A DNA stretch of 64,000 nucleotides, taken from NCBI GenBank assembly GCA_937901125.1, contig CALCGT010000059.1, positions 1,154 through 65,153 on the forward strand. Direction: 5' to 3'. The notes below the pieces were generated by a model, which made no database searches, was not told the origin of the DNA, and worked only from the letters and a program-made list of their open reading frames with translations. The DNA comes from an uncultured Clostridia bacterium (GTDB taxonomy: Bacteria; Bacillota; Clostridia; Lachnospirales; Anaerotignaceae). The position numbers were made by a program, and so were the translations under genes. This document shows, piece after piece, positions 1,456 through 37,937 of the stretch. How positions within the stretch are numbered: the stretch's first letter is position 1; each line of letters opens with the position of its first letter.

Positions 1456-1770
1456 AAAATAGTTTGGGAGCAAATGCATGTGTATGCTCATAGGAGTTAT
1501 GAATGAGTTTTTGAAAATTTCATTTTAGCTCGAATGGGTGGAATTCGAGTAGTTTAGAGGTCGAGAGACTTCAGATAAAACATATTGCCGAAATAAGAAA
1601 GCCGTTCCTTTTTCAACAGCGAAAAAGGGCGGCTTTTGCTGATGAAAAAGGGGCTGCGACGACAGCGTTTGACAGGATATGCAAAGAAGAAATGGTATCT
1701 TTGTAGACAGGAATGGAAAGATACGATTTTCAGTCTGAGCAACGAGAACAACGCAAAAGGAGGAAGCAGC

Positions 1771-2958: not shown

Positions 2959-3000
2959 GAGGACCTCAAGTTCAAAAGGACTTGGGGTCTTTATTTTTTT
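2959..3000 (+). terminator. rho-independent terminator
   Basis: GACCTCAAG (2962-2970) pairs with CTTGGGGTC (2981-2989), followed by TTTATTTTTTT. Confidence 0.7.
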
Positions 3001-3159
3001 GAAAAAAGGGGAAGATTTTTGTCGCATTGTATGAGATAGTCTCAATCATCTCATTTGCTATTGACAGCATGGAATGGAAAATGTTAGAAGTAGATAAGAA
3101 CAGATGTTCTTTATATTTCTAAAACAGGAACAAATATTTGCATTTAGGAGGAGAAGAGA

Positions 3160-3618
3160 TTGGGCTGGAAGGCATATGTGAAAGGGAGAATGGACAGCGA
3201 CAAGGGGCGTATGAAGATGCGGCTGTTGGACTGGGGATGTGCGGCAGAACGATGCGGACGGAGACAGGAAGAGATGAAACGGATTATCAAGCTGCGGAAA
3301 GAGCAGGGGGAATTGATTGGGGAGAATGATTCCGCAGCGGTGGCTCAGATGTTGGAGGAGATTGAACAGCAATACGAAGGAGACATGGCCAAACTGCAGG
3401 GCGAGATCATGGGAATCATGAAGCAGAAAAAGCAGGTGGATGGGCTGTTGCGGGGGCTGACGGAAGAAGAACGGGAATACATCCAGATGCGATACGAGAA
3501 AGGGTATGGCTTTGATTTCATTGGGATGAAGCTGCATATAAGCCGGGCTACGTTATTTCGGATGCAGGATCGGATTTTGGAAAAGTTGCTGCAGATGGAA
3601 AAAGATGAGACTGCATAA
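3160..3618 (+). CDS. phage-type transcriptional regulator with sigma-70 region-4-like HTH
   Basis: TTG start lies 8 nt after AGGAGG (3146-3151). The C-terminus LTEEEREYIQMRYEKGYGFDFIGMKLHISRATLFRMQDRILEKL has the region-4/LuxR-like HTH pattern seen in phage late regulators. It is the first gene of the cluster. Confidence 0.6.
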   Translation: MGWKAYVKGRMDSDKGRMKMRLLDWGCAAERCGRRQEEMKRIIKLRKEQGELIGENDSAAVAQMLEEIEQQYEGDMAKLQGEIMGIMKQKKQVDGLLRGLTEEEREYIQMRYEKGYGFDFIGMKLHISRATLFRMQDRILEKLLQMEKDETA

Positions 3619-3671
3619 GAGTTGGAAGGGGATATATTGAAGGAGCAGTGGAGAAAGGAGGCGATGCAAAT

Positions 3672-4070
3672 GTGGCAGAGAGAAAATTGACGGAACGGCA
3701 GAGGGAATTTTGCAGGCTTTGCGCCGCAGGAATGAAACCTTTGGATGCGGCAAAGCTGTTGGGGTATCGAAATATCAGCAGGACAGTGGGCGATATGCTG
3801 CGGATGGAGAAGGTCCAGAAGGAGATCCAAAGGAGGAAGGAAACAAAGGCTGAGCAGGCAGAAAAAACTATGCAGAAATCTGAAGAGGAAACGGCAGTGG
3901 CGGAGAAGGAAGAAATCCTGTGTTTTCTGACGGAAATGATGCGAGAGGATGATGACCCGAAGATGCGAATGAAAGCGGCAGAACTTTTGGGCAAACGGGA
4001 GAGCTTGTTTGAAAAGGAAAAAAAAGCCGAGGAAAAGAGTCCCATCTTCATCGTGGATGATCTGCCATGA
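3672..4070 (+). CDS. terminase small subunit
   Basis: LTERQREFCRLCAAGMKPLDAAKLLGYRN matches the Terminase_2-type N-terminal HTH pattern. GTG 3672 lies 10 nt after AAAGGAGG (3654-3661). The in-frame GTG at 3648 is an alternative start. The stop overlaps the terL ATG (ATGA). Confidence 0.7.
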   Translation: MAERKLTERQREFCRLCAAGMKPLDAAKLLGYRNISRTVGDMLRMEKVQKEIQRRKETKAEQAEKTMQKSEEETAVAEKEEILCFLTEMMREDDDPKMRMKAAELLGKRESLFEKEKKAEEKSPIFIVDDLP

Positions 4071-5305
4071 AGATGACGAAGCTGAGCCAGTGCATTGGGA
4101 AAGGATTTTACGGCCTGCACAGAGATATCCGAGAAGGGGGACATACCCACTACTGGCTGAAAGGCGGGAGAGGAAGCGGAAAATCTTCGTTTCTTTCCAT
4201 TGAAATCATACTGGGACTGGTGGAGGACGAGGATGCCAATGCAGTGGTGCTGCGAAAAGTGGCGGCAAATCTGCGGGACAGTGTTTTCGAGCAGATGACG
4301 TGGGCCATTCATGCTTTGGGTGTGGAGGATGAATGGGAGAGAAAGATAAGCCCCATGGAGCTGGTACGGAAAAGTACAGGACAAAAGGTGCTGTTTCGGG
4401 GATGCGATGACCCGAGAAAGCTGAAATCCATCAAATTTCAGGGTGGGTATGCTAAATTCATCTGGTATGAAGAGGTGGATGAATTTGGCGGGATGCAGGA
4501 ACTGCGGAATTTGAATCAAAGCCTGATGCGAGGGGGCGAGGAATTTCGCATTTTTTACAGCTATAACCCGCCCAAGCACGCCAGAAGCTGGGTGAACCAG
4601 GAGATGGCAGAGGAACGGAAGGGCAGGCTGGTGCATCACAGCACCTACAAAGAGATGCCGGAGGAATGGCTGGGGAGCCAATTTTTGGTGGAGGCAGAAT
4701 ATATACGGAAGCGGCACCCGGAGATTTACCGACACGAATACTTGGGAGAAGTGACGGGGAGCGGCGGAGAGGTTTTCCGCAACCTGACCCTGCGGGAGAT
4801 CAGCGACGAGGAAATTTCCGCTTTTGACAGAATCAGCCGCGGGCTGGACTGGGGGTATGCCGTAGACCCACTGCATTATACGGTGAACCACTACGACAAG
4901 ACCAGAAGACGGCTGTATATCTTCTTTGAACTGCGGGCCCAAGGCATGAGCAACCGAAGATTGGCAGAGGAGATCGGAAAGGAGAATCCCAACCACAGGG
5001 CGGTCATTTGTGATAGCGCAGAGCCGAAATCCATTGCGGAGATGCGGGACTATGGTGTGGCTGCTGTGGGAGCGAAAAAAGGGCCTGACAGCGTGTATTA
5101 CGGCATCAAGTGGTTACAGGATTTGGAGGAAATCATCATTGACCCGAAGCGATGCCCAGAGACGGCAAAGGAATTCTACGGATACGAATACGAAGGGGAC
5201 GGCAAAGGCAGCTGGAAGGCCGCATTTCCAGACAGAGAAAATCATGCCATTGACGCGGTGCGCTACAGCCGAGAGGATGATATGAGACATGTATGGATCA
5301 GGTAG
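4067..5305 (+). CDS. terminase large subunit (PBSX/XtmB-like)
   Basis: Walker A is KGGRGSGKS. The C-terminal nuclease region ends NHAIDAVRYS. 412 aa. Confidence 0.9.
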   Translation: MKMTKLSQCIGKGFYGLHRDIREGGHTHYWLKGGRGSGKSSFLSIEIILGLVEDEDANAVVLRKVAANLRDSVFEQMTWAIHALGVEDEWERKISPMELVRKSTGQKVLFRGCDDPRKLKSIKFQGGYAKFIWYEEVDEFGGMQELRNLNQSLMRGGEEFRIFYSYNPPKHARSWVNQEMAEERKGRLVHHSTYKEMPEEWLGSQFLVEAEYIRKRHPEIYRHEYLGEVTGSGGEVFRNLTLREISDEEISAFDRISRGLDWGYAVDPLHYTVNHYDKTRRRLYIFFELRAQGMSNRRLAEEIGKENPNHRAVICDSAEPKSIAEMRDYGVAAVGAKKGPDSVYYGIKWLQDLEEIIIDPKRCPETAKEFYGYEYEGDGKGSWKAAFPDRENHAIDAVRYSREDDMRHVWIR

Positions 5306-6768
5306 AGAAAGGAGAAGGGGAATTGTTTATCACAGAAATGGAGCTGCTGAAAGCAAGGCTGGCGGCGGGGAAAAGCCTCAATGACAGCCATATTCTGAAG
5401 GAGATCATTCAGGAGGACAAAAACAGCGACAAGAAAAAGAGGATGGAAGAGGGAGAGCGATATTATCAGGGGAAGCATGACATTTTGCAGAAGGACTTTC
5501 GCAGAAGCCCGGTTTCCGAAACAGGGAGAGACGGGGAAGAAAGCATGCAGATGTTTTTTAACCCGAACCGAAGCAATCACCATTGCGTGAACCCGTTCCA
5601 CCATACATTGGTGGCACAAAAGACCGCCTATCTGGTGGGGAGAGAGCCTACTATCAGCGTAAGGGGGCAGGAAAGCAGGGGATTTGAGGCCATGCTGACG
5701 GATTTTACTGACGAGGGCTTCAACAGTATGCTGCAGAATTGGATCATCGGGGCGGCCAACAAAGGTGTGGAATATCTGCATGTTTATTATGACGAAGAAG
5801 GGACGTTCCGATACTGCATCGTGCCTGCGGAGGAGATCATCGTGGTTTACGACGAGGTCTATCAGCAGGATATTAAGGAAGTCATTCGATATTATGACAT
5901 CAAGGCGCTGGAAGGCGGCAGAGAAAAAACCAAGCGGCGTGTGGAATGGTGGACAGCAGAAAACGTGACTTATTACACGGAGAACAGCCACGGAGAATTC
6001 CTGAAAGAAAACGAAAGCGGTCACTGGACGGTGACAGAACTGTTGGATGGCGAGGAAAGGGAGACCGTGGAACACGGCTGGGGCAGAGTGCCCTTTATTC
6101 CTCTGCGAAACAACGACAGGGAAATGACGGACTTGCAGCTGGTGAAGGGACTCATCGATGCCTATGATTATGTAAGCAGTGAAGGGACAAATAATCTGCT
6201 GGATCTGGTGGATCTGTATTGGGTGATCCAAGGCTACGGCGGAGAGACAGCCAGTGCGGTGGCACGAAAGCTACAGGTAAACAAGGCGGTGCAGATCAGC
6301 GACAGCAGCGGCAGCGTGGAGGCCAAGCAGGTACAGCTGCCTGTGGAGGGCAGACTGGACTGGATGCAGATGTTGCGGAAGGATATTTTCCACTTCGGCA
6401 TGGGGGTGGACACCGACAGCGACGACTGGGGCAAGGCCGCCAGCGGGGTGGCACTGAAATTCCAGTATGCTATGTTTTACCTGAAGATCAACGGCATTAT
6501 ACCGGAAATCAAGAAAGCCATGAAGGAGTTTTTCCGTTTTATAGTGGAGGACTGGAACCGGGAAAATGGCACTGACTGGGATTGGAGGAAAATCCAGATT
6601 ACCCTGAACACCAACGGCATCACCGATGATCTGGAGACGATGCAGATTATTACAGAAAGCAAGGGTATCGTCAGCGAAAAGACACTGCTGGGGAAACATC
6701 CCTTTGTTGAGGATGTGAACAGTGAAATGGAACAGTTGGAAAGAGAAAGAAAGGGGAAAGAAGAATGA
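5293..6768 (+). CDS. portal protein (SPP1 gp6-like)
   Basis: Size (491 aa), position after terL, and portal-like sequence. The start is ambiguous: ATG 5293 overlaps the terL end, and in-frame TTG 5323 follows AAAGGAG. Confidence 0.8.
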   Translation: MDQVEKGEGELFITEMELLKARLAAGKSLNDSHILKEIIQEDKNSDKKKRMEEGERYYQGKHDILQKDFRRSPVSETGRDGEESMQMFFNPNRSNHHCVNPFHHTLVAQKTAYLVGREPTISVRGQESRGFEAMLTDFTDEGFNSMLQNWIIGAANKGVEYLHVYYDEEGTFRYCIVPAEEIIVVYDEVYQQDIKEVIRYYDIKALEGGREKTKRRVEWWTAENVTYYTENSHGEFLKENESGHWTVTELLDGEERETVEHGWGRVPFIPLRNNDREMTDLQLVKGLIDAYDYVSSEGTNNLLDLVDLYWVIQGYGGETASAVARKLQVNKAVQISDSSGSVEAKQVQLPVEGRLDWMQMLRKDIFHFGMGVDTDSDDWGKAASGVALKFQYAMFYLKINGIIPEIKKAMKEFFRFIVEDWNRENGTDWDWRKIQITLNTNGITDDLETMQIITESKGIVSEKTLLGKHPFVEDVNSEMEQLERERKGKEE

Positions 6769-7187
6769 AACTGACACAGATGGTAGAAAGATTTGCCAAG
6801 CAGGGCATGGTAAACGCAGCGGCAAAGGTGGAACTGATGCAGGCTGCGGAAGAGATGGAGAGCCAGATGCAGGAAATGCAGGAGGCACTGGATGGCAAGG
6901 ACGGTGAACTGGCGGAAAATAGAAAGACTGCGGCGGTGGAAAGAGCCATTTTGGAAGCCGGCGGCAAAAATGTGAAGGCCATCATGGCACTGATCGATAT
7001 GGAAGAAGTGTCCTATGATCAGAAGGAAGGCCTGACAGGGCTGGACATGGAGGCGGTGAAGGCAGAAGCGCCTTATCTGTTCCATGAAAAGGCAGAAAAG
7101 AAAAAGGGCACAGGCGCAGCAAAAAGCGGGCAGAAAAAGAGAGAGGACGAGATTAGAGAGGCTTTCAGAAGAGGCCTGGGTAGATAA
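6765..7187 (+). CDS. capsid scaffolding protein (GP20-like)
   Basis: ATGA overlap with portal. It is a helical, Glu/Lys/Ala-rich 140-aa protein immediately upstream of the capsid gene. Confidence 0.65.
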   Translation: MKLTQMVERFAKQGMVNAAAKVELMQAAEEMESQMQEMQEALDGKDGELAENRKTAAVERAILEAGGKNVKAIMALIDMEEVSYDQKEGLTGLDMEAVKAEAPYLFHEKAEKKKGTGAAKSGQKKREDEIREAFRRGLGR

Positions 7188-7199
7188 GGAGGAGGAAAT

Positions 7200-8120
7200 A
7201 TGAGTTTTAACAGTTTTGAATATGCATCTGTTTTTATGGAAGAACTGGATAGCCAGCTGGTGGAAAAATCTACGACAGGCTGGATGGAGGACAATGCGGG
7301 ACAGGTGCAGTACAACGGCGGCGCGGAAGTGAAAATTCCAAAAATGCAGATGAGCGGTCTGGGGGACTATGACAGAGACGGGGGCTTTGCCAAGGGTGCG
7401 GTGACAGTGACCTATGAAACGAAGAAGCTGACCCAGGACAGAGGCAGAACCTTCCAGTTGGACGCTATGGATGTGGATGAAACAAATTTTGCGGCTACAG
7501 CAGGGGCAGTGATGCGGGAATTCCAGAATACAAAGGTCATTCCTGAAATCGACGCTTACCGCTACAGCAAGATCGCTGAGCTGGCGCAGACAGCCCAAAA
7601 GACAAAGGAATACACAGCAACGGTAGATACGATTTTTGAAAACCTGATGAACGATATGACTGCGATTCGGGATACCGTAGGCGACGGCTGTGAAATGGTC
7701 ATTGCCATGAGTGCAAAGGTGGCAGGGATGCTGGATCTGGCAAAAGGCGGTGCAAATGTGCTGGAAAGCGGTGTATTCCAGCAGGGCAGCGCAGAGCTGA
7801 AAGTGAAAGAAATCGACGGCTGCCCTATCATCAGAGTGCCTTCTGCACGATTCCAGACAAAATATACTTTTAAGGATGGCGTGACAGAAAATGAAACTGA
7901 CGGTGGTTTTGCGGCGGCAGAAGACGCCAAGGCTATCAACTGGATCATCATGGTGAAACAGGCACCTGTGGCCATTTCCAAAACAGATGTGACAAGAATT
8001 TTTGACCCTATGACAAACCAGAACGCCAATGCGTGGAAGATTGACTACAGAAAATACCATGATATCTGGATCACAGACAACGGCATGGACGGTATTGTGG
8101 TGAACATCAGCAAAGCATAA
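7200..8120 (+). CDS. major capsid protein (XkdG-position)
   Basis: AAGGAGGAGG RBS, 306 aa, located after the scaffold gene. Size and position match PBSX-type coat proteins. Confidence 0.75.
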   Translation: MSFNSFEYASVFMEELDSQLVEKSTTGWMEDNAGQVQYNGGAEVKIPKMQMSGLGDYDRDGGFAKGAVTVTYETKKLTQDRGRTFQLDAMDVDETNFAATAGAVMREFQNTKVIPEIDAYRYSKIAELAQTAQKTKEYTATVDTIFENLMNDMTAIRDTVGDGCEMVIAMSAKVAGMLDLAKGGANVLESGVFQQGSAELKVKEIDGCPIIRVPSARFQTKYTFKDGVTENETDGGFAAAEDAKAINWIIMVKQAPVAISKTDVTRIFDPMTNQNANAWKIDYRKYHDIWITDNGMDGIVVNISKA

Positions 8121-8137
8121 GGAAAGGCGGCGGAAGG

Positions 8138-8467
8138 ATGCAGGAAAGAATTCTGGCGAAGCTGCAGGAATTGAGAGACGAAGATGACCTTGCCGCCATG
8201 GACTTTGCGGCAGGGCGTAGCGAAGAAATGATGAAAGCCTACTGCAACATTGACGAGCTGCCCGAAGAACTGCTGGGGACAGGTGTAGCACTGGCAGGGC
8301 TGCTGTTGGACAGCAGTGCAGTTGCGACGCCCTCCCAGAAGGCCAAAAGCATTAAGGAAGGGGATGTTTCCATCACCTTTCAGGAGGACGGCTGTGGGGC
8401 AGAGGAGGAAAAGCTGCTGGCTTGCTTTCAGGTGGAGCTTGACCGTTGGAGACGGATGGACTGGTAA
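8138..8467 (+). CDS. head-tail connector protein (gp6-like)
   Basis: 109 aa, acidic, first gene after the capsid gene. Confidence 0.55.
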   Translation: MQERILAKLQELRDEDDLAAMDFAAGRSEEMMKAYCNIDELPEELLGTGVALAGLLLDSSAVATPSQKAKSIKEGDVSITFQEDGCGAEEEKLLACFQVELDRWRRMDW

Positions 8468-8479
8468 GGAGGAAGCGGC

Positions 8480-8842
8480 ATGAAAAAGGAATTTGCAAGA
8501 GCAAAAAAAGCCGTGGAGAGCCTATTCTGGGACACCTGCTATGTGGAGATTTTCCAAGAGGAAAAGGCGGACTGGGGCGAGACTATGCATCAGAAGGGGG
8601 AGGCAGACAACTTCCCCTGCCGCCTGACGGAAAAAAACACCCCTTGTGGGGAAAACGGACTGCTGGCGGAGATGGAAAAAACGGTCATTCTGCTTTATCC
8701 TGCTGAAAAGGACATTCCTGTGGGGAGTGCCCTTCGGGTGCGGAAGGAAAACGGCGAGGAACGGCAGTATTTTGCGGCGGGAGATAGTCAGGTGTTTTTG
8801 ACCCATAAGGCAGTGGGGCTGAGAAGGAGAGATATGGTATGA
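8480..8842 (+). CDS. head-tail adaptor / head closure protein
   Basis: TAAGGAGGAAG RBS, 120 aa. Function assigned by position in the head-tail joining block. Confidence 0.5.
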   Translation: MKKEFARAKKAVESLFWDTCYVEIFQEEKADWGETMHQKGEADNFPCRLTEKNTPCGENGLLAEMEKTVILLYPAEKDIPVGSALRVRKENGEERQYFAAGDSQVFLTHKAVGLRRRDMV

Positions 8843-9297
8843 CAGAGGAAATCAGAAGAGCAGTGATAAAGGCAATCTCTGAAAAATTCGGGCTGCCGGT
8901 CTATGGGCAGGGAGTGCCCCAAGGGGCAAGAAGACCCTGCCTTACGGTGGAGATCAGAGAATTGGAGCAGAAGCGGCTGCTGGGCAGACGAGCGGCAAGA
9001 AAAGTCATGGTGGAGAGTCGGTATTTTTGCGGCGGGGCGAAAACAGCGGCGGAAGGAATGGCGGCGGCGGATGGGCTTTTTGAAGTGCTGAGTATCATTG
9101 GCACAGATGAAAAATTTGCGGCAAGTGGTATGAAGCAGGAAACGACGGAAGACGGCGTGAAAGTCATGGCGGAATATGAATATCACATCATTTTTGACGA
9201 GGAAGAGATCGGGCTGATGGAACGGCTGGAATACAACGGAAAGGAAGCAGTGGGCTATGAAACAGAAGGCGACATTCAGCAGGGAACAGCTGAGTAA
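8839..9297 (+). CDS. head-tail joining / tail completion protein
   Basis: ATGA overlap with the previous ORF, 152 aa. Function assigned by position only. Confidence 0.45.
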   Translation: MTEEIRRAVIKAISEKFGLPVYGQGVPQGARRPCLTVEIRELEQKRLLGRRAARKVMVESRYFCGGAKTAAEGMAAADGLFEVLSIIGTDEKFAASGMKQETTEDGVKVMAEYEYHIIFDEEEIGLMERLEYNGKEAVGYETEGDIQQGTAE

Positions 9298-9421
9298 GAG
9301 CAAGACCTTTGGGTATGGTGCTGACCTGGTGAAAGCGGTGCTGGAGGACAGAGCATACACCAAGGGAGAAGCGGAAAAGAAAATTCAGGCATATTTGACA
9401 GGAAAAAGAAAGGAGTATTGA
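9257..9421 (+). CDS. small conserved-looking phage protein (54 aa), overlaps upstream ORF by 41 nt
   Basis: I translated this by hand; it is below the ORF-track size cutoff. Sequence is MKQKATFSREQLSKSKTFGYGADLVKAVLEDRAYTKGEAEKKIQAYLTGKRKEY. It fills the otherwise non-coding gap before the sheath gene, and its stop TGA (9419-9421) lies 1 nt before the sheath ATG. Confidence 0.4.
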   Translation: MKQKATFSREQLSKSKTFGYGADLVKAVLEDRAYTKGEAEKKIQAYLTGKRKEY

Positions 9422-9422
9422 T

Positions 9423-10715
9423 ATGGCATTAGGCGGCGGCACTTTTTTAGTGCAGAACGAGGTATTGCCCGGGGCATACATCAATTTTGTTTCCAGACCA
9501 AGAGCCATGGGCAATCTGGGAGAAAGAGGCGTGGTTTGTGTCGGTATGGAAATGGATTGGGGCAAAGAAGGGATGCTGACAGTGGAAGCGGCAGGCTTCC
9601 GAACAGACAGCAGAGCCCTGTTTGGCTATAATTATCTGGATGAAAAGATGAAGGACATGCGGGAGCTTTTCCTCCATGCAAAAAAGGTACATCTGTATCG
9701 ATTGAACGGCGGGAAAAAGGCGACCGCAACAGAAGGAAACCTGACGGTGACAGCAAAATACAGCGGCGAGAGAGGTAACGATATCTGCATCGCTATTTTA
9801 GAAAATGTAGACGAGGAAGGAAAGTTCGATGTGGAGACTTATCTGGGGACAGAGATGGTGGACAGCCAGACAGCGGCAAACATCGAAGAACTGGAGGAGA
9901 ATGCGTATGTTGCCTTCAAAGGCACGGGCGTATTGACAGCAGTGGCAGGGTTATACCTTACGGGCGGCACCACAGAGGAGGCAGCAGGCAGCGCATATAC
10001 AGAATTTTTGGAAGCGGCAGAGGCAGAGGATTTCAATGTGCTGGCTTACAAAGGCAGTAATGAGACAACAAAGAAGCTGTTTGTGAACTTTACAAAGCGG
10101 ATGAGAGAGGAAGAAGGCGTAAAATTCGTGACGGTGCTGCATGATTATGCGGAGGCAGACCACGAAGGCGTGATTTCTGTTGGTACAGCCAGTGAACTGG
10201 TGTACTGGGTGGCCGGTGCTACAGCAGGGGCTGAGGTGAACGAAAGCCTGACGAATATGGTCTACGATGGGGAATATGAAGTGAACGCAAAGCGGAAAAA
10301 GAGCGAGTACATCAAGGGCATTCAGGCGGGGCAGTTTTTATTCTATGAAGAGGACGGCAAGCTGCGGGTGCTGCGGGACATCAACAGCTTTACCTCCTTT
10401 GAGGTGGCGAAAAACAGCGATTTTTCCGGCAACAGAGTGGTAAGGGTGCTGGACAGCATCGCCAACGATGTGGCGAATATCTTCAGTAAGTATTATCTGG
10501 GGAAACAGAGCAACAATGCCAACGGCAGAAACCTGCTGAAGGCAGAAATTCTGGCATACCATGAAGAACTGATGAAGATTGAAGCCATCGAGAATTTCAC
10601 AGCGGAGGATCTCACTGTGGAAAAAGGCGTGGAAAAACAGGATGTGGTGGTTTATGAAAACGTGCAGCCTGTGGACGCCATGGAAAAGCTGTATATGAAA
10701 GTCGAAGTTGCGTAA
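9423..10715 (+). CDS. contractile tail sheath protein (XkdK-like)
   Basis: The N-terminus MALGGGTFLVQNEVLPGAYINFVS is the characteristic sheath start. 430 aa. Confidence 0.9.
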   Translation: MALGGGTFLVQNEVLPGAYINFVSRPRAMGNLGERGVVCVGMEMDWGKEGMLTVEAAGFRTDSRALFGYNYLDEKMKDMRELFLHAKKVHLYRLNGGKKATATEGNLTVTAKYSGERGNDICIAILENVDEEGKFDVETYLGTEMVDSQTAANIEELEENAYVAFKGTGVLTAVAGLYLTGGTTEEAAGSAYTEFLEAAEAEDFNVLAYKGSNETTKKLFVNFTKRMREEEGVKFVTVLHDYAEADHEGVISVGTASELVYWVAGATAGAEVNESLTNMVYDGEYEVNAKRKKSEYIKGIQAGQFLFYEEDGKLRVLRDINSFTSFEVAKNSDFSGNRVVRVLDSIANDVANIFSKYYLGKQSNNANGRNLLKAEILAYHEELMKIEAIENFTAEDLTVEKGVEKQDVVVYENVQPVDAMEKLYMKVEVA

Positions 10716-10729
10716 AGGAGGTGCGATAG

Positions 10730-11185
10730 ATGGGTTATTTGAGAGCAAAAGACACCGTCAATGGTGCCCTGGGCACCTGCTTTGCCATCATTGACGGGAA
10801 AAGACACGAACTGATGCAGGTGAAAAACATTAAGGCGAAGGTAAAGAAAACCAGAACCACCATCCCTATTTTGGGGCTGACGGCAAAGCAGCAGAAAAGC
10901 GGTGGCTGGGAAGGCACCGGCACCATGACGGTGTATTATGTGAGCAGTCTGTTCCGTAAGGTGATGGTGGACTACATGAAAAATGGTGTGGACACCTACT
11001 TTGAACTGATGCTGACCAATGAAGACCCTACGGGGGAAGCGGGCAGACAGACGGTGCTGCTGAAGGATGTGAACATTGAAGAAATGCTCATTGGCAAGCT
11101 GGATGTGGACGAAGCGGCCATGGATGAGGAAATGAAATTTACCTTTGGCGGCGTGGAACTGCTGGATAGTTTTAACAAGCTGTAA
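10730..11185 (+). CDS. tail tube protein (XkdM-like)
   Basis: 151 aa, immediately after the sheath gene, with an XkdM-like sequence pattern (DTVNGALGTCFAIIDGKRHE...GWEGTGTMTVYY). Confidence 0.85.
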   Translation: MGYLRAKDTVNGALGTCFAIIDGKRHELMQVKNIKAKVKKTRTTIPILGLTAKQQKSGGWEGTGTMTVYYVSSLFRKVMVDYMKNGVDTYFELMLTNEDPTGEAGRQTVLLKDVNIEEMLIGKLDVDEAAMDEEMKFTFGGVELLDSFNKL

Positions 11186-11211
11186 ACCAATTTGGAAAGG
11201 GAGGGGATTTT

Positions 11212-11574
11212 TTGGGACAGGAATGTTTTTATAGAGAAAACCGAAAGGATAGGGGGGAAAGAGAAGTCCTTCTGACGGAAAGGCTGGCGGAAGACGGAGG
11301 GCAGATGCTTTGGCGCATCCGCCCCATGAGCCAGAGAGAAAACGAGGACATCTGGAAAAGATGCGGCGAGGATGAGAAGAGATATGAAGGGACGGTGCTG
11401 GCGGAAAGCGTGGTCTTTCCAGACCTGAAAGATGCGGCACTGCAGAACAGCTATGGCGTAGTCGGGGCAGAACGGTTGCTGGCGAGACTGCTGCTGGCGG
11501 GGGAATACGACCGACTGCGCAGGGCTGTGGAGGAGATCAATGGAGGTGACAGCGGATGTATCGACTGTATTTGA
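11212..11574 (+). CDS. tail assembly chaperone, copy 1 (XkdN-like), without frameshift extension
   Basis: TTG start after GGGAGGGG. It is a paralog of the 13202-13567 ORF: compare AEDGGQMLWRIRPMS...FPDLKDAALQNSYGV...AGEYDRLRRAVEEING with AEDGAEVLWEVRAVS...KPDLQDKELWESYGV...PGEYIRLLEAVKDING. Confidence 0.75.
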   Translation: MGQECFYRENRKDRGEREVLLTERLAEDGGQMLWRIRPMSQRENEDIWKRCGEDEKRYEGTVLAESVVFPDLKDAALQNSYGVVGAERLLARLLLAGEYDRLRRAVEEINGGDSGCIDCI

Positions 11575-12203
11575 AGCAGGACGGAAAACAAATCCTGCTG
11601 CCTGTGACACCTTCCGAGATGGAAACAAAGACAGGGAACCGAAACAAGACGGTTTATATCCTGAACTTTGGGGAGATGAATCTGGCGAAAAAGCCGGGAC
11701 TGCAGGAGATTCGATTCACGGCGCTGCTGCCGGGGAGACAGTACGGCTTTGTACAGGTGGAGGACGGATTCCATGAGCCGGAATATTTCCTGAATTTTTT
11801 TAAGGAATACAAGGCAGCGGCAAAGCCTGTGCAGATGGTTTTATTCCGAAAGCTGGCAGACGGGACACAGCTTTTTTGCGGGAACATGGAAGTGCTGCTG
11901 GAAGATTACACAGTGACGGAAAAAGGCGGCGAACAGGGGGACTTCTGGGTGGAGTTGCACTGGAAGGAATGGAAAGCGGCGAAGAGCATCCGTTACAGTA
12001 TCAAAGGTAATGCTATGGTGGAGCAGGGGCAGGAGAGACAGGCGAAGCAGCCTGCCGTAACCTATACAGTACAGAAGGGGGACTGCCTTTGGAACATTGC
12101 GAAAAAGCAGCTGGGCAATGGGGCAAGGTATAAGGAAATTGCCCAGAAGAATGGCATTGCCAATCCGGATAAGATTTATCCCGGACAGGTTTTGAAGCTG
12201 TAA
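11556..12203 (+). CDS. XkdP-like tail protein with C-terminal LysM
   Basis: C-terminal LysM is YTVQKGDCLWNIAKKQLGNGARYKEIAQKNGIANPDKIYPGQVLKL. RBS is GGAGG. Confidence 0.8.
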   Translation: MYRLYLKQDGKQILLPVTPSEMETKTGNRNKTVYILNFGEMNLAKKPGLQEIRFTALLPGRQYGFVQVEDGFHEPEYFLNFFKEYKAAAKPVQMVLFRKLADGTQLFCGNMEVLLEDYTVTEKGGEQGDFWVELHWKEWKAAKSIRYSIKGNAMVEQGQERQAKQPAVTYTVQKGDCLWNIAKKQLGNGARYKEIAQKNGIANPDKIYPGQVLKL

Positions 12204-12221
12204 CAGAAAGGGGAGAAGGGG

Positions 12222-13199
12222 ATGACGATTAAGCTTTTATTGCAGCACGGCAGCAATCTTTATGATGCTACACCGATTTTGGAGGGGGGCGTGGAATGGT
12301 ACGCCAGCATCAAGGGAAAGGCCGGAAGACTGAAATTTCAGGTAGCCAGAGACGGTATCGTGAATTTTGTGGAGGGGGACAAGGTTTCCCTTTATGTAGA
12401 TACGATCTTGCGGTTTAGCGGATTTGTGATGACGAAGGAGAGAACCAGCGAACAGATCATCAGCGTGACTGCCTATGACCAGATGTTTTATCTGGTAAGG
12501 AACAAAGCGACATATGTGTTCCTGAACAAAGGGGCAGAGGAGATTATCCAGACCATTGCCGCGGATTATGGCTTGCAGGTGGGAGAGATCACCGACAGCG
12601 GCTGGAAGATTCCCCAGCGGATTGAAGAAGGGGAAACGCTGATGGACATTATCCTTTCTGCCTTGGAGATTTGCGGGCAGGCTATGGGGAAGGAATATTT
12701 CCTTTTTGATAAAGCCGGCTGGCTGACGGTGAAGGAGCGAAAGGAACTGGCGGCAGAGGTAGTGCTGAAATGCGATGGCGGCATCAGCGAGTATACATAT
12801 AAGACGGATATCAGCCAGGATACCTATAATGCAGTGCGGCTTTACCATGCGGGACGGAAGGAGACGGAGCGGAAAGCATGGGAAGTGGAACAGGGAGACA
12901 AGGTGAAAAAATGGGGTAGGCTGCAGTATTACAAGCGGGTGCCCTACACCATGAACAGTGGGCAGCTAAAGGAACTGGCGGAAAGTATTCTGAAAGAAAA
13001 ATGCAGAGTGGTGAAGAAGCTGACCATTGAGAACATCAATGGGGATAGGATGCTTTATGCAGGGAACAGTATTTGGCTGGAAATTCCGGGACTGGCGGAG
13101 ATCAGCCTGAAGGGAAGAGTGCTGATCGAAAGCTGTACCCATATTTTCGCCGATGGGGAGCATCGGATGCAGTTGGAGATTCGGATCGAGGAGGAATAA
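12222..13199 (+). CDS. XkdQ-like / late control D-like baseplate hub protein
   Basis: 325 aa, following the LysM protein as in PBSX-type tails. Confidence 0.7.
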   Translation: MTIKLLLQHGSNLYDATPILEGGVEWYASIKGKAGRLKFQVARDGIVNFVEGDKVSLYVDTILRFSGFVMTKERTSEQIISVTAYDQMFYLVRNKATYVFLNKGAEEIIQTIAADYGLQVGEITDSGWKIPQRIEEGETLMDIILSALEICGQAMGKEYFLFDKAGWLTVKERKELAAEVVLKCDGGISEYTYKTDISQDTYNAVRLYHAGRKETERKAWEVEQGDKVKKWGRLQYYKRVPYTMNSGQLKELAESILKEKCRVVKKLTIENINGDRMLYAGNSIWLEIPGLAEISLKGRVLIESCTHIFADGEHRMQLEIRIEEE

Positions 13200-13201
13200 G
13201 G

Positions 13202-13567
13202 ATGGACTTGAAAAGCTTTTTGAAGGAGAATAATGGATTCCCGGAAAACAGGAAAGCACGCATTTCACCCTGCTTTGCAGAGGACGGCGCAGAGGTGCTT
13301 TGGGAGGTTAGAGCAGTCAGCGAGGAAGAATACCGCAGGGCGGCGAAAGGCAAAAAGGACAAATGGGCGGTGTTGTGTCTGCTTTCTGTGGTAAAGCCTG
13401 ATCTGCAGGATAAGGAACTTTGGGAAAGCTATGGTGTGGACAGCGGGGAAAAGGCGTTGAAGGAAATGCTGTATCCCGGAGAATACATACGGCTTTTGGA
13501 AGCGGTGAAAGACATCAACGGCTTTCAGCAGCGGAGAAAGGCTTGGAAGGAACAGGCAAAAAACTGA
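13202..13567 (+). CDS. tail assembly chaperone, copy 2 (gpG-like)
   Basis: ATG 13202 lies just after the XkdQ-like stop. It is a paralog of 11212-11574. It ends with the slippery heptamer A AAA AAC followed by TGA. Confidence 0.8.
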   Translation: MDLKSFLKENNGFPENRKARISPCFAEDGAEVLWEVRAVSEEEYRRAAKGKKDKWAVLCLLSVVKPDLQDKELWESYGVDSGEKALKEMLYPGEYIRLLEAVKDINGFQQRRKAWKEQAKN

Positions 13568-13725
13568 TTGAGGAGGGTGTGGACGAGGCGGATTATGCCT
13601 GCTATGCCCTCCGAAAATACGGGATACGACCCAGAGAATGGGCGGAAATGACTACACCGGAGCGGATGTTTTGCTGTGCTGTCATCGAGCTTGAAATTAA
13701 AGCTGCGGAGAAGGCCAGAGGATAA
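13202..13725 (+). CDS. predicted -1 frameshift fusion of chaperone copy 2 (gpGT-like)
   Basis: The -1 frame is open from the heptamer at 13558-13564 to TAA 13723-13725. It reads ...AKKLIEEGVDEADYACYALRKYGIRPREWAEMTTPERMFCCAVIELEIKAAEKARG. Confidence 0.6.
13558..13564 (+). other. programmed -1 ribosomal frameshift slippery heptamer A_AAA_AAC
   Basis: It has the X_XXY_YYZ pattern in the zero frame (GCA AAA AAC TGA), 1 codon before the chaperone stop. Confidence 0.6.
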
Positions 13726-13740
13726 GAGGTGAGAAGGGGA

Positions 13741-14388
13741 ATGGAAAAGGAAAAGAAAGGGCTGTTCGTGCGCCTGCTGGATTTTTGGAAGGAAAAGCTC
13801 GGGGCAGGCGAGACGAAGGGCATTGGGTTTTGGAATGGTGCGAAGAACTTGGAAAATCCTTTTACTGAGATGGATGATTCTGTTTCTTTGACCCAAAGGG
13901 AGAGGAAAAGGGATTTCTGGGAAGAAAAAGTCGAAACCGTTTTGGAAGAAAAGAAACGGGAAAGCAGTGTTTTAGAACGGGAGAAGAAGCTCTTTTTTGC
14001 GGAAGAGGAGAAAGAACAAAGAGAACCTATGGAGGCTGTGGAAGAAGGGGAAAGAACGGAGAAACAAAAAGGTTCCAAGCTTTTTACGGCGGAGGTTTTT
14101 CGGGAAGAAAGGCAGGCAGAAGCAGAGATAGGCAGAATAGGGCGGGCTTTTCTTTGGGAGATGCTGGAAATGGAAAAAGAGAGACGAAGCATTGTGCCTG
14201 TGAAGGAAGAAGCGAAGCAGGAGAAAATAGCTGTTGCGGAAAGAAAGCAGGAAATGCCAAAAACGGAAATGATGAAACGAGAAGAACCCCAGACGGGGAC
14301 ACCATTTGACATAGAAAAGCTGATGCAGCAGATGACGAAAAAGCTCTGGGAAGAGCGGGAAAGCTGCGGCAGGCGGCTGAGAGGATAA
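13741..14388 (+). CDS. Glu/Lys-rich 215-aa protein in the tape-measure position
   Basis: It directly follows the G/GT chaperone pair. ATG 13741 follows GAGG/AAGGGGA, and GTG 13729 is also in frame. The sequence is highly charged and predicted helical. Confidence 0.45.
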   Translation: MEKEKKGLFVRLLDFWKEKLGAGETKGIGFWNGAKNLENPFTEMDDSVSLTQRERKRDFWEEKVETVLEEKKRESSVLEREKKLFFAEEEKEQREPMEAVEEGERTEKQKGSKLFTAEVFREERQAEAEIGRIGRAFLWEMLEMEKERRSIVPVKEEAKQEKIAVAERKQEMPKTEMMKREEPQTGTPFDIEKLMQQMTKKLWEERESCGRRLRG

Positions 14389-14400
14389 GGGGGAAGGAAG

Positions 14401-14730
14401 ATGCTTGAAATTATCAAACAGCTGGCATTGGATGCGGCAGAAACGGGTGCGGATTTCTGCGTTGGGACGGTGACAGCGACAGAGCCTCTCTGCATCCGAC
14501 TGGAAGAGGGACTGGAATTGACGGAGCCCTTTTTGGTGCTGACAGAGGAAGTGCTGGAATGGGAAGAAACAGGACGCATCCGCACATGGACGGATACGGA
14601 AGGAGACAGATGGTCTTATTACCGAATGAAACGGGACAGAAAGCTGAAGGTTGGCGAGGCTGTAGCACTGCTGCGGGCGGCTGGTGGACAGCAATATTTG
14701 GTGCTGTGCAGAGTAAGAAAGGAGGAATAG
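14401..14730 (+). CDS. XkdR-like baseplate protein (DUF2577-like)
   Basis: 109 aa. The N-terminus MLEIIKQLALDAAETGADFCVGTVTATEPLCIRLEEGLELT fits the DUF2577 pattern. Confidence 0.7.
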   Translation: MLEIIKQLALDAAETGADFCVGTVTATEPLCIRLEEGLELTEPFLVLTEEVLEWEETGRIRTWTDTEGDRWSYYRMKRDRKLKVGEAVALLRAAGGQQYLVLCRVRKEE

Positions 14731-14731
14731 G

Positions 14732-15136
14732 ATGACACCGATACAGGAAGTGAAACTGGACATGATGAGTATCGAGAAAAAGACCATCCCCAGTCTGACC
14801 TGGAAGGTTAACGAGGAGCGGGCAGAGGTGAGGGGAACGGTGGATGGGCTGGAAGCCATGAAACAGGCGATCCATAAAACTTTACAGACGGAACGATACA
14901 GATATGCCATTTACGATTGGAATTACGGCATCGAGTTGGAAGAATTGTATGGGAAGAATGTGACCTATGTGATTCCAGAACTGAAAAAGAGGATCGAAGA
15001 TGCGCTGCTGGCAGATGATCGAGTGACAGCGGTGACGGATTTTTCCTTTCAGCAGGAAAAGGACAGTGTGACGGCAGGATTTCTGGTGCATACTATTTTC
15101 GGTGAGATCACAGCGGAAAGGACGGTGGACATTTGA
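14732..15136 (+). CDS. XkdS-like baseplate wedge protein (DUF2634 / gp25-W-like)
   Basis: VDGLEAMKQAIHKTLQTERYRYAIYDWNYGIELEELYG is the typical DUF2634 core. Confidence 0.8.
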   Translation: MTPIQEVKLDMMSIEKKTIPSLTWKVNEERAEVRGTVDGLEAMKQAIHKTLQTERYRYAIYDWNYGIELEELYGKNVTYVIPELKKRIEDALLADDRVTAVTDFSFQQEKDSVTAGFLVHTIFGEITAERTVDI

Positions 15137-16206
15137 TGGTGAAAAGCTATGAGGAACTGATGGAGCGGAAGCTGGATCAGATTGATGACAAAAGAGACAA
15201 GCGGCAGGGCAGCCTGATCTATGATGCCATGGCACCCAATGCGGCGGAAACGGCCACCTTTTACGCTGATTTGGATATGCTGGAGGGCAGAACATTCGCA
15301 GATACAGCAACGGGGGACGACCTGACCAGACGAGCGGCAGAACGGGGTATCGCTAGAAAGCCTGCGGTAAAGGCGACATTTTACGGACGTTTTTTCAATG
15401 AAGACGGTGAGGAATACCCCGTGGAAGCGGGCATGAGATTTTTTTTGGAGGAATACTATTATGTGGTGCTTTCCAAAGAAGCAGACGGGCGATATGTGCT
15501 GGAATGTGAAACGGCAGGTGCCTGCGGAAATGATTACTTAGGGAATTTGCTGCCTTTGGAAAACATAGACGGATTAGCGGTTGCCATGTTGGAGGAACTG
15601 CGGACGGACGGCGAGGATGAAGAAGGGGACGAGGAACTTCGGAAACGGTATTTTGCCAGCTTTGACGCAGATGCCTTCGGTGGAAACATCTCTGATTACC
15701 AGAGAAAGGTCAGCGCACTGCAGAGCGTTGGTGGGGTAAAGGTATACCCTGCATGGGACGGCGGCGGCACGGTGAAGCTGGTCATCATCGACCAGGGCTG
15801 GCGTTCCCCTACGGAAACGGAACTGGCAGAGCTGCAGAAGGAGATCGACCCGGAAAGCAGAGGTGACGGATATGGGATTGCGCCCATTGGACATCAGGTG
15901 ACGGTGGAAGGAGTTAAGGAAGTGACCTGCAACATTACCATGGGAATTTCTCTGGCGGAAGGAGCGGTGCAGGAGACGGTGCTAGCGGATATCCAAAGCA
16001 GATTTGAGTTATATTTTCAGGAACTGCGGAAAAGCTGGGCAGAAAGCGAATATTTGACGGTACGGATCAGCTATCTGGAATCCAGAGCTTTGGAGGCAGA
16101 TGGCGTAGTGGATATTTCCGATTGCATGGTCAACGGCGCTGGAGGAAATACGGTGCTGGGGGCTGATGAGATCCCTATTTTGGGTGAGATCGGGGTGACA
16201 GCATGA
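15136..16206 (+). CDS. baseplate J-like protein (XkdT-like)
   Basis: DKRQGSLIYDAMAPNAAETATFYADLDML...AERGIARKPAVKA is a baseplate-J family pattern. ATG 15136 overlaps the previous stop (TGATG). TTG 15133 is an alternative start. Confidence 0.85.
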   Translation: MVKSYEELMERKLDQIDDKRDKRQGSLIYDAMAPNAAETATFYADLDMLEGRTFADTATGDDLTRRAAERGIARKPAVKATFYGRFFNEDGEEYPVEAGMRFFLEEYYYVVLSKEADGRYVLECETAGACGNDYLGNLLPLENIDGLAVAMLEELRTDGEDEEGDEELRKRYFASFDADAFGGNISDYQRKVSALQSVGGVKVYPAWDGGGTVKLVIIDQGWRSPTETELAELQKEIDPESRGDGYGIAPIGHQVTVEGVKEVTCNITMGISLAEGAVQETVLADIQSRFELYFQELRKSWAESEYLTVRISYLESRALEADGVVDISDCMVNGAGGNTVLGADEIPILGEIGVTA

Positions 16207-16772
16207 AGGAAAACAGATACAGCGGGTATTTACCCGATACGGTAAAAGAATTACAGGAATTTCAGAAGCTGGCGGAGATTGAGGGGCAAATTCTGGAGGA
16301 AGAAGCGGCAGCAAGAGACAAGGTGGTGAATAACCAATGGATCCTGACGGCGGAAAGAAGCGGGCTGCTGCGGCTGGCGAAGATGATGGGATTTCTGGGG
16401 GCAGAGGTACTGGAAACGGAGGCGCTGCGGAAAGAGATCCTGTATCGTTGGAACAGCCGAGGCCCGTATACCCGGTTTCATTTGCTGGATTGGCTGGATG
16501 GCTGCTGCGGGGAAGGCAAATACACTGCAGAACTGGAACGAGAGAAGTTTTTCCTGCATCTGGTATTGGAGCTGAGCATAAAGGGGAAAAGAGACTTTTT
16601 GCAGAAGCATCTGCGGAAGATCATCCCAGCAAATTTGACCCTGAAAGTAGATTTGAACACGAATACTTACGGGAAGGTGGGCGTGATGACCCACGGGAAG
16701 ATGAAGGAACTGGGCTGGACTTACGGGCAGATTCCTTTTGAAGACCTGACACCTTACCGGACAAAAGAATGA
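16203..16772 (+). CDS. XkdU-like tail protein (DUF2313-like), last gene of cluster
   Basis: ATGA overlap with the previous ORF. The N-terminus YSGYLPDTVKELQEFQKLAEIEGQILEEE fits the DUF2313 pattern. Confidence 0.75.
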   Translation: MKENRYSGYLPDTVKELQEFQKLAEIEGQILEEEAAARDKVVNNQWILTAERSGLLRLAKMMGFLGAEVLETEALRKEILYRWNSRGPYTRFHLLDWLDGCCGEGKYTAELEREKFFLHLVLELSIKGKRDFLQKHLRKIIPANLTLKVDLNTNTYGKVGVMTHGKMKELGWTYGQIPFEDLTPYRTKE

Positions 16773-16777
16773 GAGAA

Positions 16778-16816
16778 AGCCTTAAGCAAAAAAACATTGC
16801 TTGGGGCTTTTTTATT
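16778..16816 (+). terminator. rho-independent terminator closing the phage-like cluster
   Basis: AGCCTTAAGCAA (16778-16789) pairs with TTGCTTGGGGCT (16797-16808, two G-U pairs), then TTTTTTATTT. Confidence 0.75.
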
Positions 16817-16966
16817 TGTAAAAATGGTTTTTTGGAAAAAAATGAGGATGCAGTGAGGCTTGAAGACGAAGCCGATCCATGTGGAAGATACCGGTGGGAA
16901 TTGCCTTGCTCTTCTATTTTGGGGGTGGTATGATAAAAAATGAAGAAAACAAAGGGAGGAAGAAGG

Positions 16967-21100: not shown

Positions 21101-21102
21101 AA

Positions 21103-21143
21103 GAAAACCCTCTTGTCCAATAGGATGAGAGGGTTCTTTTTTT
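21103..21143. terminator. bidirectional terminator between convergent rnr and RDD gene
   Basis: AACCCTCT (21106-21113) pairs with AGAGGGTT (21128-21135). It is flanked by an A-run and a T-run. Confidence 0.7.
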
Positions 21144-36962: not shown

Positions 36963-37006
36963 AAAAAGACGGTAAGATTTTCGGGTCTTACCGTTTTTTG
37001 TATGCA
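36963..37006 (+). terminator. nifJ terminator; copy A of a roughly 45-bp direct repeat
   Basis: ACGGTAAGA pairs with TCTTACCGT, then TTTTTTG. It is nearly identical to 38221-38266. Confidence 0.8.
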
Positions 37007-37175
37007 GATAAGAAAAATATATTTAAATTTTTATAGTTTTTTGTCGTTTTTTATTTAAATAAAAGAATTTACACTTGTTTTGATTGACAAAATCAAAATG
37101 ATTAGATACGATGTATCACATAAAGTACAATTTGCTTTTGTGATAATGATGGATTATAAAAAGGAGGCGAACTTT

Positions 37176-37922: not shown

Positions 37923-37937
37923 TAAGGGGGGGAGGTT

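Follow-up and report, generated by a model that had tools for sequence, protein, structure and literature searches.

A conserved head and contractile-tail gene cluster of the Anaerotignaceae as a likely domesticated phage-derived particle system

Phage structural genes that sit between housekeeping genes without any evident means of mobility may be the residue of a prophage, part of an element that still moves, or a particle maintained by the host. We asked which of these applies to a cluster within a 64-kb stretch of DNA from an uncultured Clostridia bacterium of the family Anaerotignaceae (contig CALCGT010000059.1, positions 1,154 to 65,153; hereafter the window). Coordinates throughout are positions in this window, and L numbers denote loci or contigs of relatives. 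The cluster genes occupy 3160-16772 (13.6 kb) and comprise 21 genes, all on the plus strand, together with one frameshift product; adjoining open reading frames (ORFs) frequently overlap, by 4 bases or slightly more. Profile searches of the cluster proteins with Pfam, PHROG and NCBIfam bore out the ORFs and families of a preliminary description of this DNA, which had listed some 22 same-strand ORFs encoding a head and contractile-tail set and had regarded them as a host-maintained particle producer, not a decaying prophage. Synteny, co-divergence, selection and composition, given below, support that view. We consider it likely that 3061-16813 is one operon of phage origin that was fixed in an ancestor of the Anaerotignaceae, has been inherited vertically and is kept functional by selection as a domesticated particle cluster of the PBSX or gene transfer agent (GTA) type.

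Distribution, co-divergence and constraint of the cluster

A scan of one genome per species, using the sheath protein as the query, yielded 43 loci. They belong to Anaerotignum (among them A. lactatifermentans), to the ASF356 and Coprocola lineages, to Chakrabartyella piscis and to related metagenome-assembled genomes (MAGs). In each of them the cluster is complete and its gene order unchanged, and across these roughly 40 species it mostly occupies one chromosomal site. The junction between XkdU, secG and rnr is retained down to 59-64% sheath identity, and on the left a conserved LysM gene adjoins the cluster in most genomes; the conserved synteny at secG-rnr for which the preliminary description had proposed to look is therefore present. 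In a related human-gut species that was instead found through rnr alone, the cluster lay next to secG-rnr in 24 of the 25 metagenome contigs with enough upstream sequence, and the strain-specific occurrence envisaged as a counter-argument to host maintenance was thus not observed. In the exception, L099 (rnr 90% identical), small minus-strand ORFs at 1-2058, directly upstream of rnr, replace secG; this may reflect insertion of another element at the junction, in a contig too short to show whether the cluster follows.

The divergence of the cluster follows that of its hosts. Between A. lactatifermentans and the window, protein identities are 71% for the large terminase subunit (TerL), 69% for the portal, 76% for the capsid and 72% for the sheath, with 71% for Cls and 74% for RNase R. 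Across 13 genomes, the pairwise divergence of seven cluster proteins correlates closely with that of RNase R (Mantel r 0.94, slope 1.15; reached in 0 of 2000 permutations). In IMG/VR, all sheath matches of at least 59% identity lie on contigs of at most 18.7 kb, whereas matches of at most 47% belong to ordinary prophages of 37-74 kb. The nearest named phages are Clostridioides difficile myophages, at 44% sheath identity.

Ratios of non-synonymous to synonymous substitution (dN/dS), calculated by the method of Nei and Gojobori, range from 0.03 to 0.2 across all structural genes, and those of head and packaging genes lie towards the lower end (terL 0.05, portal 0.05, capsid 0.07, sheath 0.05-0.09, tube 0.04). 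The corresponding values for the flanking genes are 0.03-0.05 (cls) and 0.02-0.04 (rnr), so that relaxed selection, for which a dN/dS check had been suggested, is not seen, and dS in the cluster equals that of cls, rnr and the LysM gene. Dozens of species have all 21 genes undisrupted, even where the proteins have diverged by up to about 40%, and internal stops among relatives are confined to a few assemblies of low quality, whose rnr is broken too. Composition also tracks the host: GC content at third codon positions (GC3) of the cluster follows host GC3 across genomes, from 0.19 (ASF356) to 0.63, and lies slightly above it in most genomes, though not in all. In the window, GC3 is 0.60 in the cluster and 0.53 in host genes.

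The cluster is bracketed by two intrinsic terminators on the plus strand, as had been described. That of the upstream LysM gene forms the left boundary (2959-3000; 15-bp stem and T run), and a second one forms the right boundary (16773-16813; 17-bp stem, dG -21.6 kcal/mol, z -5.65, then a T run). The direct housekeeping flanks named in the preliminary description were likewise recovered, with cls and the LysM-protein gene on the left and MATE, secG, rnr, an RDD protein gene, smpB and the tmRNA gene (ssrA) on the right. Neither an integrase or excisionase gene nor any replication gene was found in or around 3001-16820, integrase and replication genes were not recognised elsewhere in the 64 kb either, and no att-like direct repeats flank the cluster; the reported lack of these functions, and of fibre and lysis genes within the cluster, was borne out. 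Taken together, the locus presents an intact and constrained gene set predicted to form capsids, package DNA and build a contractile tail, with no recognisable means of self-replication or excision.

The adjacent MATE gene (16940-18334) provides an internal reference for this intactness. It carries an in-frame TAG (17546-17548) at a position where the orthologs in L001-L004 and L009 have TGG (Trp). Because L226, a contig of the same species, has the gene split in the same way, we take MATE to be a real and recent pseudogene beside a fully intact phage-derived cluster, and the earlier statement that no ORF of the cluster is disrupted holds while its neighbour bears a nonsense mutation.

On the other side, the LysM gene (1636-2952, plus strand) encodes a 438-aa product and adjoins the left end of the cluster in most genomes, at 43-96% identity. 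By eye, the N-terminal region of the protein resembles MPN/JAB (GWVHCQP...). A charged linker and a membrane segment follow, and a LysM domain, the one part that Pfam recognises, lies at the C-terminus. The tmRNA gene (23143-23498, plus strand; tag peptide DKNNFALAA) lies just past smpB. It is a common phage integration target and is unoccupied here, the cluster sitting 6 kb upstream of it and not at it. Elsewhere in the window, the kilobase of lowest GC content is 37001-38000 (0.327, against about 0.46). It contains a plus-strand ORF (37206-37922) whose 238-aa product has a signal-peptide-like N-terminus and no NCBIfam match.

Particle genes and the rearranged tail module

The first gene of the cluster (3160-3618) encodes a small late-gene activator of the sigma-70 region-4, RinA or Xpf-like kind (PF04545, E 1.4e-6; phrog_36, E 1.4e-11), with a weak match to the NF005385 'positive control sigma-like factor' (E 0.0046). 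It is followed by genes for a 140-aa small terminase subunit (TerS; 3648-4070; phrog_51, E 2.2e-10) and a TerL of the PBSX/Terminase_3 type (4067-5305; PF04466, E 7e-38; PF17288, E 2.6e-15). TerL has both an ATPase with the Walker A motif GGRGSGKS and an RNaseH-like nuclease domain; profiles matched the two domains, in agreement with the intact TerL described before. The portal is of the SPP1 gp6 type (5293-6768; PF05133, E 1.4e-112). The combination of a Terminase_3 TerL with an SPP1-type portal is typical of headful packaging.

Next come a short scaffolding protein of 140 aa (6765-7187), matching PF06810 over profile positions 54-167 of 170 (E 2.8e-17), and the major capsid protein (7200-8120; phrog_422, E 4.3e-111). 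The preliminary description had counted a prohead protease among the missing functions. None is present, and this is no deficiency, since scaffolded heads of the SPP1/PBSX type are normally without one. The connector region comprises a head-tail adaptor (8138-8467; phrog_132, E 4.7e-12), a second adaptor or head closure protein (8480-8842; phrog_615, E 2.5e-21), homologous to gp10 of the C. difficile phage phiCDMH1 (CDMH1), and a tail terminator (8839-9297; PF20765, E 1.8e-22). A conserved 54-aa protein, a homolog of CDMH1 gp13, is encoded immediately before the sheath gene (9257-9421; phrog_966, E 1e-14).

The tail module starts with the contractile sheath (9423-10715; PF17482, PF04984, PF17481, PF22671) and the tube (10730-11185; PF09393, E 2.9e-48). 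These are followed by a first XkdN-type chaperone (TAC1; 11212-11574; PF08890, E 2.8e-22; dN/dS 0.07-0.08) that has no frameshift extension, an XkdP-like LysM baseplate protein (11556-12203; PF01476; phrog_380, E 8.9e-68) and an XkdQ/YqbQ-like baseplate hub (12222-13199; PF24032, E 3.7e-89). The hub lacks the C40 peptidase domain of its phage homolog, and its alignment with the 629-aa gp24 of CDMH1 is limited to the first 324 residues of the latter. A second XkdN-type chaperone then appears (TAC2, the 'G' form; 13202-13567; PF08890, E 1.7e-18). Downstream of the tape measure candidate discussed below, the module ends with an XkdR-like DUF2577 baseplate protein (14401-14730; PF10844, E 1.7e-19), an XkdS-like, gp25-like sheath initiator (14732-15136; PF10934, E 1.6e-31), an XkdT-like baseplate J protein (15133-16206; PF04865, E 1.7e-52) and, as the last gene, an XkdU or Mu gp48-like baseplate protein (16203-16772; PF10076, E 8.4e-14; phrog_521, E 1.7e-34). 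The preliminary description had correctly recognised the sheath, tube, chaperones and XkdP/Q/R/S/T/U-like baseplate; it had missed three features of this module, namely a frameshift site, a miniature tape measure and a rearranged gene order.

The frameshift site is a -1 slippery heptamer, A_AAA_AAC (13558-13564), placed directly before the TAC2 stop, where the 3' end of the gene reads ...GCA AAA AAC TGA. The -1 frame stays open until 13725, and this extension (13564-13725; phrog_33439, E 5.4e-28) would yield a chaperone fusion of the 'GT' type. The heptamer is kept in all orthologs, those of the ASF356 clade having A_AAA_AAG, and outgroup prophages possess it as well. L226, which comes from another sample, is 99.5% identical to the window over 20.7 kb, and the sole indel between them is a run of seven A residues instead of six in the slippery sequence of TAC2 (window 13558-13563; L226 about 14136-14142). 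The additional A in L226 encodes the predicted fusion directly, as a product of 174 aa (...EQAKKLIEEG...); it may represent true variation in homopolymer length or an error of assembly. We interpret TAC2 and its extension as a probable G/GT-type chaperone pair made by programmed -1 frameshifting, and the 219-aa ORF directly after this pair therefore occupies the tape measure position.

This ORF (13729-14388) encodes 219 aa from a GTG start, or 215 aa from the ATG at 13741. No tape measure gene of normal length exists in the cluster, and the 219-aa product has no match in Pfam, PHROG or NCBIfam. The C-terminal motif of its orthologs (...IGQVRETADVD.IME.MTKKLWEAR...) is colinear with the C-termini of the full-length tape measures of outgroup prophages. 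The alignment is confined to the C-terminal ~30 residues (L041 against L040, 44% over 34 aa, E 9e-6 in a 4-sequence database), and a profile hidden Markov model of the short family did not match the four full-length tape measures. In near relatives the protein measures 212-232 aa at 68-74% identity, while neighbouring genes are 90-95% identical, and its dN/dS of 0.33-0.36 is the maximum of the cluster. An AlphaFold2 single-sequence model, used for helix content alone in view of its low confidence (pLDDT 55), is nearly all helix. Position, C-terminal motif, conserved length, dN/dS and the helical model support its assignment as a mini tape measure. In the ASF356/Coprocola clade the homolog has 316-439 aa. 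With a ruler relation of about 1.5 angstrom per residue, as known for tape measures, the tail would be some 30-35 nm long here and 50-70 nm in that clade.

The order of genes in the module is tube, TAC1, XkdP, XkdQ, TAC2, 219-aa ORF and XkdR, so that XkdP and XkdQ precede the second chaperone. In related phages, by contrast, a single XkdN chaperone is followed by a long tape measure, XkdP, XkdQ and XkdR. The closest relatives with the canonical order have one chaperone and then a gap of 2.0-2.7 kb, presumably the tape measure gene, before XkdP. The rearranged order is confined to the syntenic lineage, and it could have arisen if the segment from chaperone to hub had been duplicated in tandem and two deletions had then taken place. 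Separately, a locus of Tissierella simiarum (L040, 8650-21277) has a sigma-like gene about 1.1 kb upstream of a sheath gene that shows 57% identity, and no matches to the head genes. Its tail order is canonical, with a second baseplate-J copy at 20324-21277, and it may represent a head-less tailocin related to this tail module.

Proposed regulation and function

The intergenic region upstream of the sigma-like gene spans 208 bp and contains a putative sigma-A-type promoter on the plus strand (3061-3090), with a -35 element TTGACA (3061-3066), an 18-nt spacer and a TG-extended -10 element TAGAAG (3082-3090). In an alignment of 12 orthologous upstream regions, the TTGACA and an AAATGnTAG block are conserved. 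Two putative operators, likewise missed by the preliminary description, accompany the promoter. Box 1, of the LexA/Cheo type (AGAACAGATGTTCT, 3097-3110), has the form GAAC-N4-GTTC; its half-sites are kept while the N4 spacer varies in L002-L004, L008, L009, L012 and L015. Box 2 (GAACAAATATTT, 3128-3139) is a GAAC-N4-ATTT variant, with which the orthologs align as GAA(C/T)-N4-(G/A)TT(T/C). Both resemble the LexA operator of Bacillus and Clostridium, GAAC-N4-GTT(C/T) (PMC4234289).

The relatives suggest how this arrangement may have arisen. A divergent minus-strand gene lies between the LysM and sigma-like genes in L041 and in two clades, that of A. lactatifermentans and that of ASF356/Coprocola. 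It encodes an XRE-type helix-turn-helix (HTH) joined to a LexA-like S24 autoprotease (L020 2526-3164; L033 2614-3258; L041 2606-3316), conserved at 50-99% identity. The protein looks like an SOS-cleavable phage repressor, and its presence in relatives therefore points to an ancestral SOS switch. We considered whether it might be host LexA and rejected this identification; its N-terminus is an XRE-type HTH, and the C-terminal S24 domain alone aligns with the lexA model, at 99 bits against a cut-off of 111. The repressor gene is absent from the window, from the whole of its clade (L001-L015) and from Chakrabartyella (L038). LexA-type boxes number two in each repressor-less lineage and one in the A. 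lactatifermentans clade. In our reading, host LexA has taken over directly from the SOS sensor that the phage brought with it. The two LexA-type boxes at a conserved promoter and the loss of the S24 repressor in the clade of the window suggest that production may be under host control.

In the mechanism that we propose, DNA damage would cause host LexA to leave the two GAAC-N4-GTTC-type boxes, which overlap the predicted transcription start of the sigma-A promoter. The sigma-region-4 protein would then be made and would drive or boost transcription of the 20 genes that follow and, in all probability, of lysis and receptor-binding genes at unlinked loci. TerS, the Terminase_3 TerL and the SPP1-type portal would fill scaffold-assembled capsids by a headful mechanism with host chromosomal DNA, proposed as the cargo because the element can neither excise nor replicate. 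The short scaffold gives only a hint that the packaged DNA may be shorter than the particle gene set. A short contractile tail would be built on the XkdP-U baseplate, its length set by the 215-219-aa mini tape measure with the G/GT pair as chaperones. Release would depend on lysis genes encoded elsewhere, and the particles, carrying random host DNA, would either deliver it to recipients in the manner of a GTA or act mainly by killing, as PBSX does.

Several observations weigh against a domesticated, host-controlled particle cluster. The cluster contains no fibre or receptor-binding, holin or endolysin gene, and tblastn with all CDMH1 proteins, together with a reading of all long ORFs, brought none to light in the other 47 kb of the window; the system as seen in these 64 kb may thus be incomplete. 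Nor does the window contain the SPP1-gp7-type minor head and HK97-gp10-type neck proteins that related phages possess. In L105-L107 (rnr 78% identical), neither secG nor the cluster occurs within 2-10 kb upstream of rnr, where thymidine kinase and K+ transporter genes lie instead; this could reflect loss, relocation or a different genus. The synonymous codon usage of the cluster differs from that of the host (relative synonymous codon usage, r 0.70, against 0.97 between host halves), which together with the GC3 difference contradicts the earlier impression by eye that base composition matches the flanks. LexA binding is predicted from sequence, no LexA-type box was seen in the ASF356/Coprocola clade, and the two perfect GAAC-N4-GTTC sites in the window, against 0.72 expected by chance, are not significant alone. 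Because this window-wide count is unremarkable, it is the conservation of the boxes alone that carries weight. For the organism of the window the evidence consists of its genes, and a published 14-kb Coprocola cluster (see below) is linked to this one by family, size and content, on which basis it is probably the same element.

Within the reading of a domesticated cluster, we are inclined to see DNA carriage as the trait under selection, given that head and packaging genes are constrained like housekeeping and tail genes, that the predicted tail is very short and that a linked fibre is absent. In its fullest form, which we put forward tentatively and as a minority possibility, the cluster would encode a true GTA with a miniature contractile tail, old, family-wide and wired to SOS through LexA, that moves random chromosomal DNA between gut Anaerotignaceae cells. 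Such a GTA would have originated independently of all GTAs described so far, its tail having been shortened by an internal deletion of the tape measure after tandem duplication of the chaperone-to-hub segment. If this were true, it would be the first demonstration of transduction, as opposed to killing, by a particle with a contractile tail.

The alternative of a killer particle of the PBSX type, in which the contractile tail is selected as a bacteriocin against related strains and packaged host DNA is an undelivered by-product, we regard as unlikely, if still worth serious attention. The closest architectural precedent, PBSX, acts in this way (PMC12946183). Strong constraint on all sheath, tube and baseplate genes would be expected of such a particle, and an SOS-type switch is typical of tailocins and PBSX alike. 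Yet the head and packaging genes are as constrained as the tail genes throughout the family, which is hard to explain if heads are useless. Moreover, the tail of about 30-35 nm predicted from the 219-aa ruler would be very short for puncturing a Gram-positive wall, and the fibre gene that would confer bacteriocin-like strain specificity was not found in the window.

Far less probable is that the cluster depends on a helper or remains mobile, for instance as a satellite or split prophage which borrows the replication, lysis and fibre genes of another phage and continues to spread horizontally. The missing functions must indeed come from elsewhere, IMG/VR classes orthologous stretches as viral, and codon usage is not fully host-like. 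Against this stand the fixed chromosomal position with neither integrase nor att site, a divergence that mirrors RNase R, dS equal to that of the flanks and GC3 that follows each host, none of which is compatible with horizontal spread. Known capsid-forming satellites, furthermore, are without tail modules and possess integrase and replication genes. A decaying, functionless remnant retained by chance, for which the absent lysogeny, replication, lysis and fibre modules, the truncated tape measure and the rearranged tail module might be cited, has a negligible chance of being correct and is already contradicted by the data: the 21 genes are intact at dN/dS 0.03-0.2 in dozens of species, MATE gained a nonsense mutation in the same genome while the cluster did not, and the truncation and rearrangement are themselves conserved. 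Both the remnant and the mobile element are rejected because of the distribution, co-divergence, selection, intactness, composition and prevalence of the cluster and the lack of a close full-size phage.

Comparison with known systems

GTA-like elements have been well characterised almost solely in the Alphaproteobacteria, and for Gram-positive bacteria the 2026 literature offers PBSX and the Faecalibacterium element FpGTA, the latter having been called the second Gram-positive GTA-like system after PBSX (PMC12946183). The cluster would document a third, independent Gram-positive lineage spanning a whole gut family, with a fixed locus, co-divergence, housekeeping-level constraint and host-tracking composition. 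What is new here is the family-wide domestication, the mini tape measure with its duplicated chaperone and the switch from a repressor to LexA boxes. The cluster would also supply a genetic basis for Anaerotignaceae DNA in mouse-gut virus-like particles and a natural experiment both in tail-length miniaturisation and in the giving way of a phage SOS repressor to direct host LexA control. The ~220-aa tape measure, the conserved frameshift site and the LexA boxes are testable features, and cultured hosts exist in A. lactatifermentans, ASF356 and Chakrabartyella piscis. Our literature search found nothing specific on prophages, GTAs or PBSX-like elements of Anaerotignum or ASF356.

Set beside the defining features of GTAs (PMC11841831, PMC12946183), the locus is a structural cluster without excision and replication functions of its own, and it shows vertical inheritance under purifying selection (synteny in ~40 species, Mantel r 0.94, dN/dS and GC3). 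GTA genes have elevated GC content relative to their hosts (PMC7360931), and the same trend is present in most cluster genomes.

The candidate closest in taxonomy comes from a Coprocola MAG of the Anaerotignaceae from mouse gut, all 25 contigs of which are enriched in the virus-like particle fraction (bioRxiv 10.64898/2026.07.08.737213, July 2026). The only phage-like regions described there are a 3.6-kb holin/endolysin cluster and a separate 14-kb 'core GTA cluster' of TerS, TerL and structural genes, with a coverage bump at neither. Virus-like particle reads cover the entire genome, and these wet-lab data from the family lend independent, if indirect, support to particles that package random host DNA. 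The family had thus already been flagged by this preprint, and the preliminary remark that no contractile-tail GTA has been described in gut Clostridia must be qualified by this candidate. Like the cluster of the window, the Coprocola region belongs to this family, holds TerS, TerL and structural genes in about 14 kb and lacks integration and replication genes; details of sheath, tape measure, synteny or selection do not appear in the text and supplement as consulted. Among our orthologs are that of Ca. Coprocola pullicola (L028) and those of the ASF356 clade, with clusters of about 14.6 kb. That clade differs from the window in its longer tape measure and in its regulation, having retained the S24 repressor and showing none of the LexA-type boxes.

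PBSX and the skin-element region of Bacillus subtilis provide the closest architectural parallel. Like the cluster, they are myovirus-derived sets of head and contractile-tail genes, chromosomally fixed and without replication functions; they are also linked to SOS, as the cluster is predicted to be. The cluster contains the PBSX-like gene set from sigma-like activator through TerS, TerL, portal, scaffold, capsid, sheath, tube and XkdN to XkdP-U. In both, the activator (Xpf in PBSX) lies directly upstream of TerS and a Terminase_3 TerL, and the Pfam families of the XkdN/P/Q/R/S/T/U-type proteins are named after PBSX and skin proteins. PBSX is about twice as long and has its own Xre repressor, a full-length tape measure (XkdO), a fibre (XkdV) and a lysis cassette in one locus. 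The cluster departs from this arrangement of tape measure, fibre and lysis genes. It has instead the 219-aa mini tape measure, two chaperones and XkdP and XkdQ ahead of the tape measure; linked fibre and lysis genes were not found, there is no linked repressor in this genus, and the nearest phages are clostridial and not of Bacillus.

FpGTA resembles the cluster in being a GTA-like operon of gut Bacillota (Firmicutes), nearly ubiquitous in its genus, with terminase and capsid genes. It is a podovirus-like operon of 10.5 kb and ten ORFs that packages 8.4-8.9 kb (PMC12946183), and unlike the cluster it has no sheath, tube or baseplate module.

The C. difficile myophages phiCDMH1, phiC2 and phiMMP01 are 44% identical to the cluster in the sheath and 42-47% in the tube, XkdS and XkdT, and they share its head-to-baseplate order up to the chaperone. 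In contrast to the cluster, they are full temperate phages of 44-57 kb with a minor head protein, an extra neck protein, one chaperone, a tape measure of 780 aa (CDMH1), an XkdQ fused to the C40 peptidase, fibres, a holin and an amidase.

Finally, RcGTA of the Alphaproteobacteria is, like the cluster, a compact head-tail set of about 14-15 kb, vertically inherited under purifying selection; it has dispersed accessory genes and host regulation, as predicted for the cluster too. RcGTA has a non-contractile siphovirus-type tail and an HK97-type head with a protease, and is controlled by CtrA/GafA and quorum sensing, not by SOS. The two have no sequence relationship beyond shared folds, and we therefore regard them as independent in origin.

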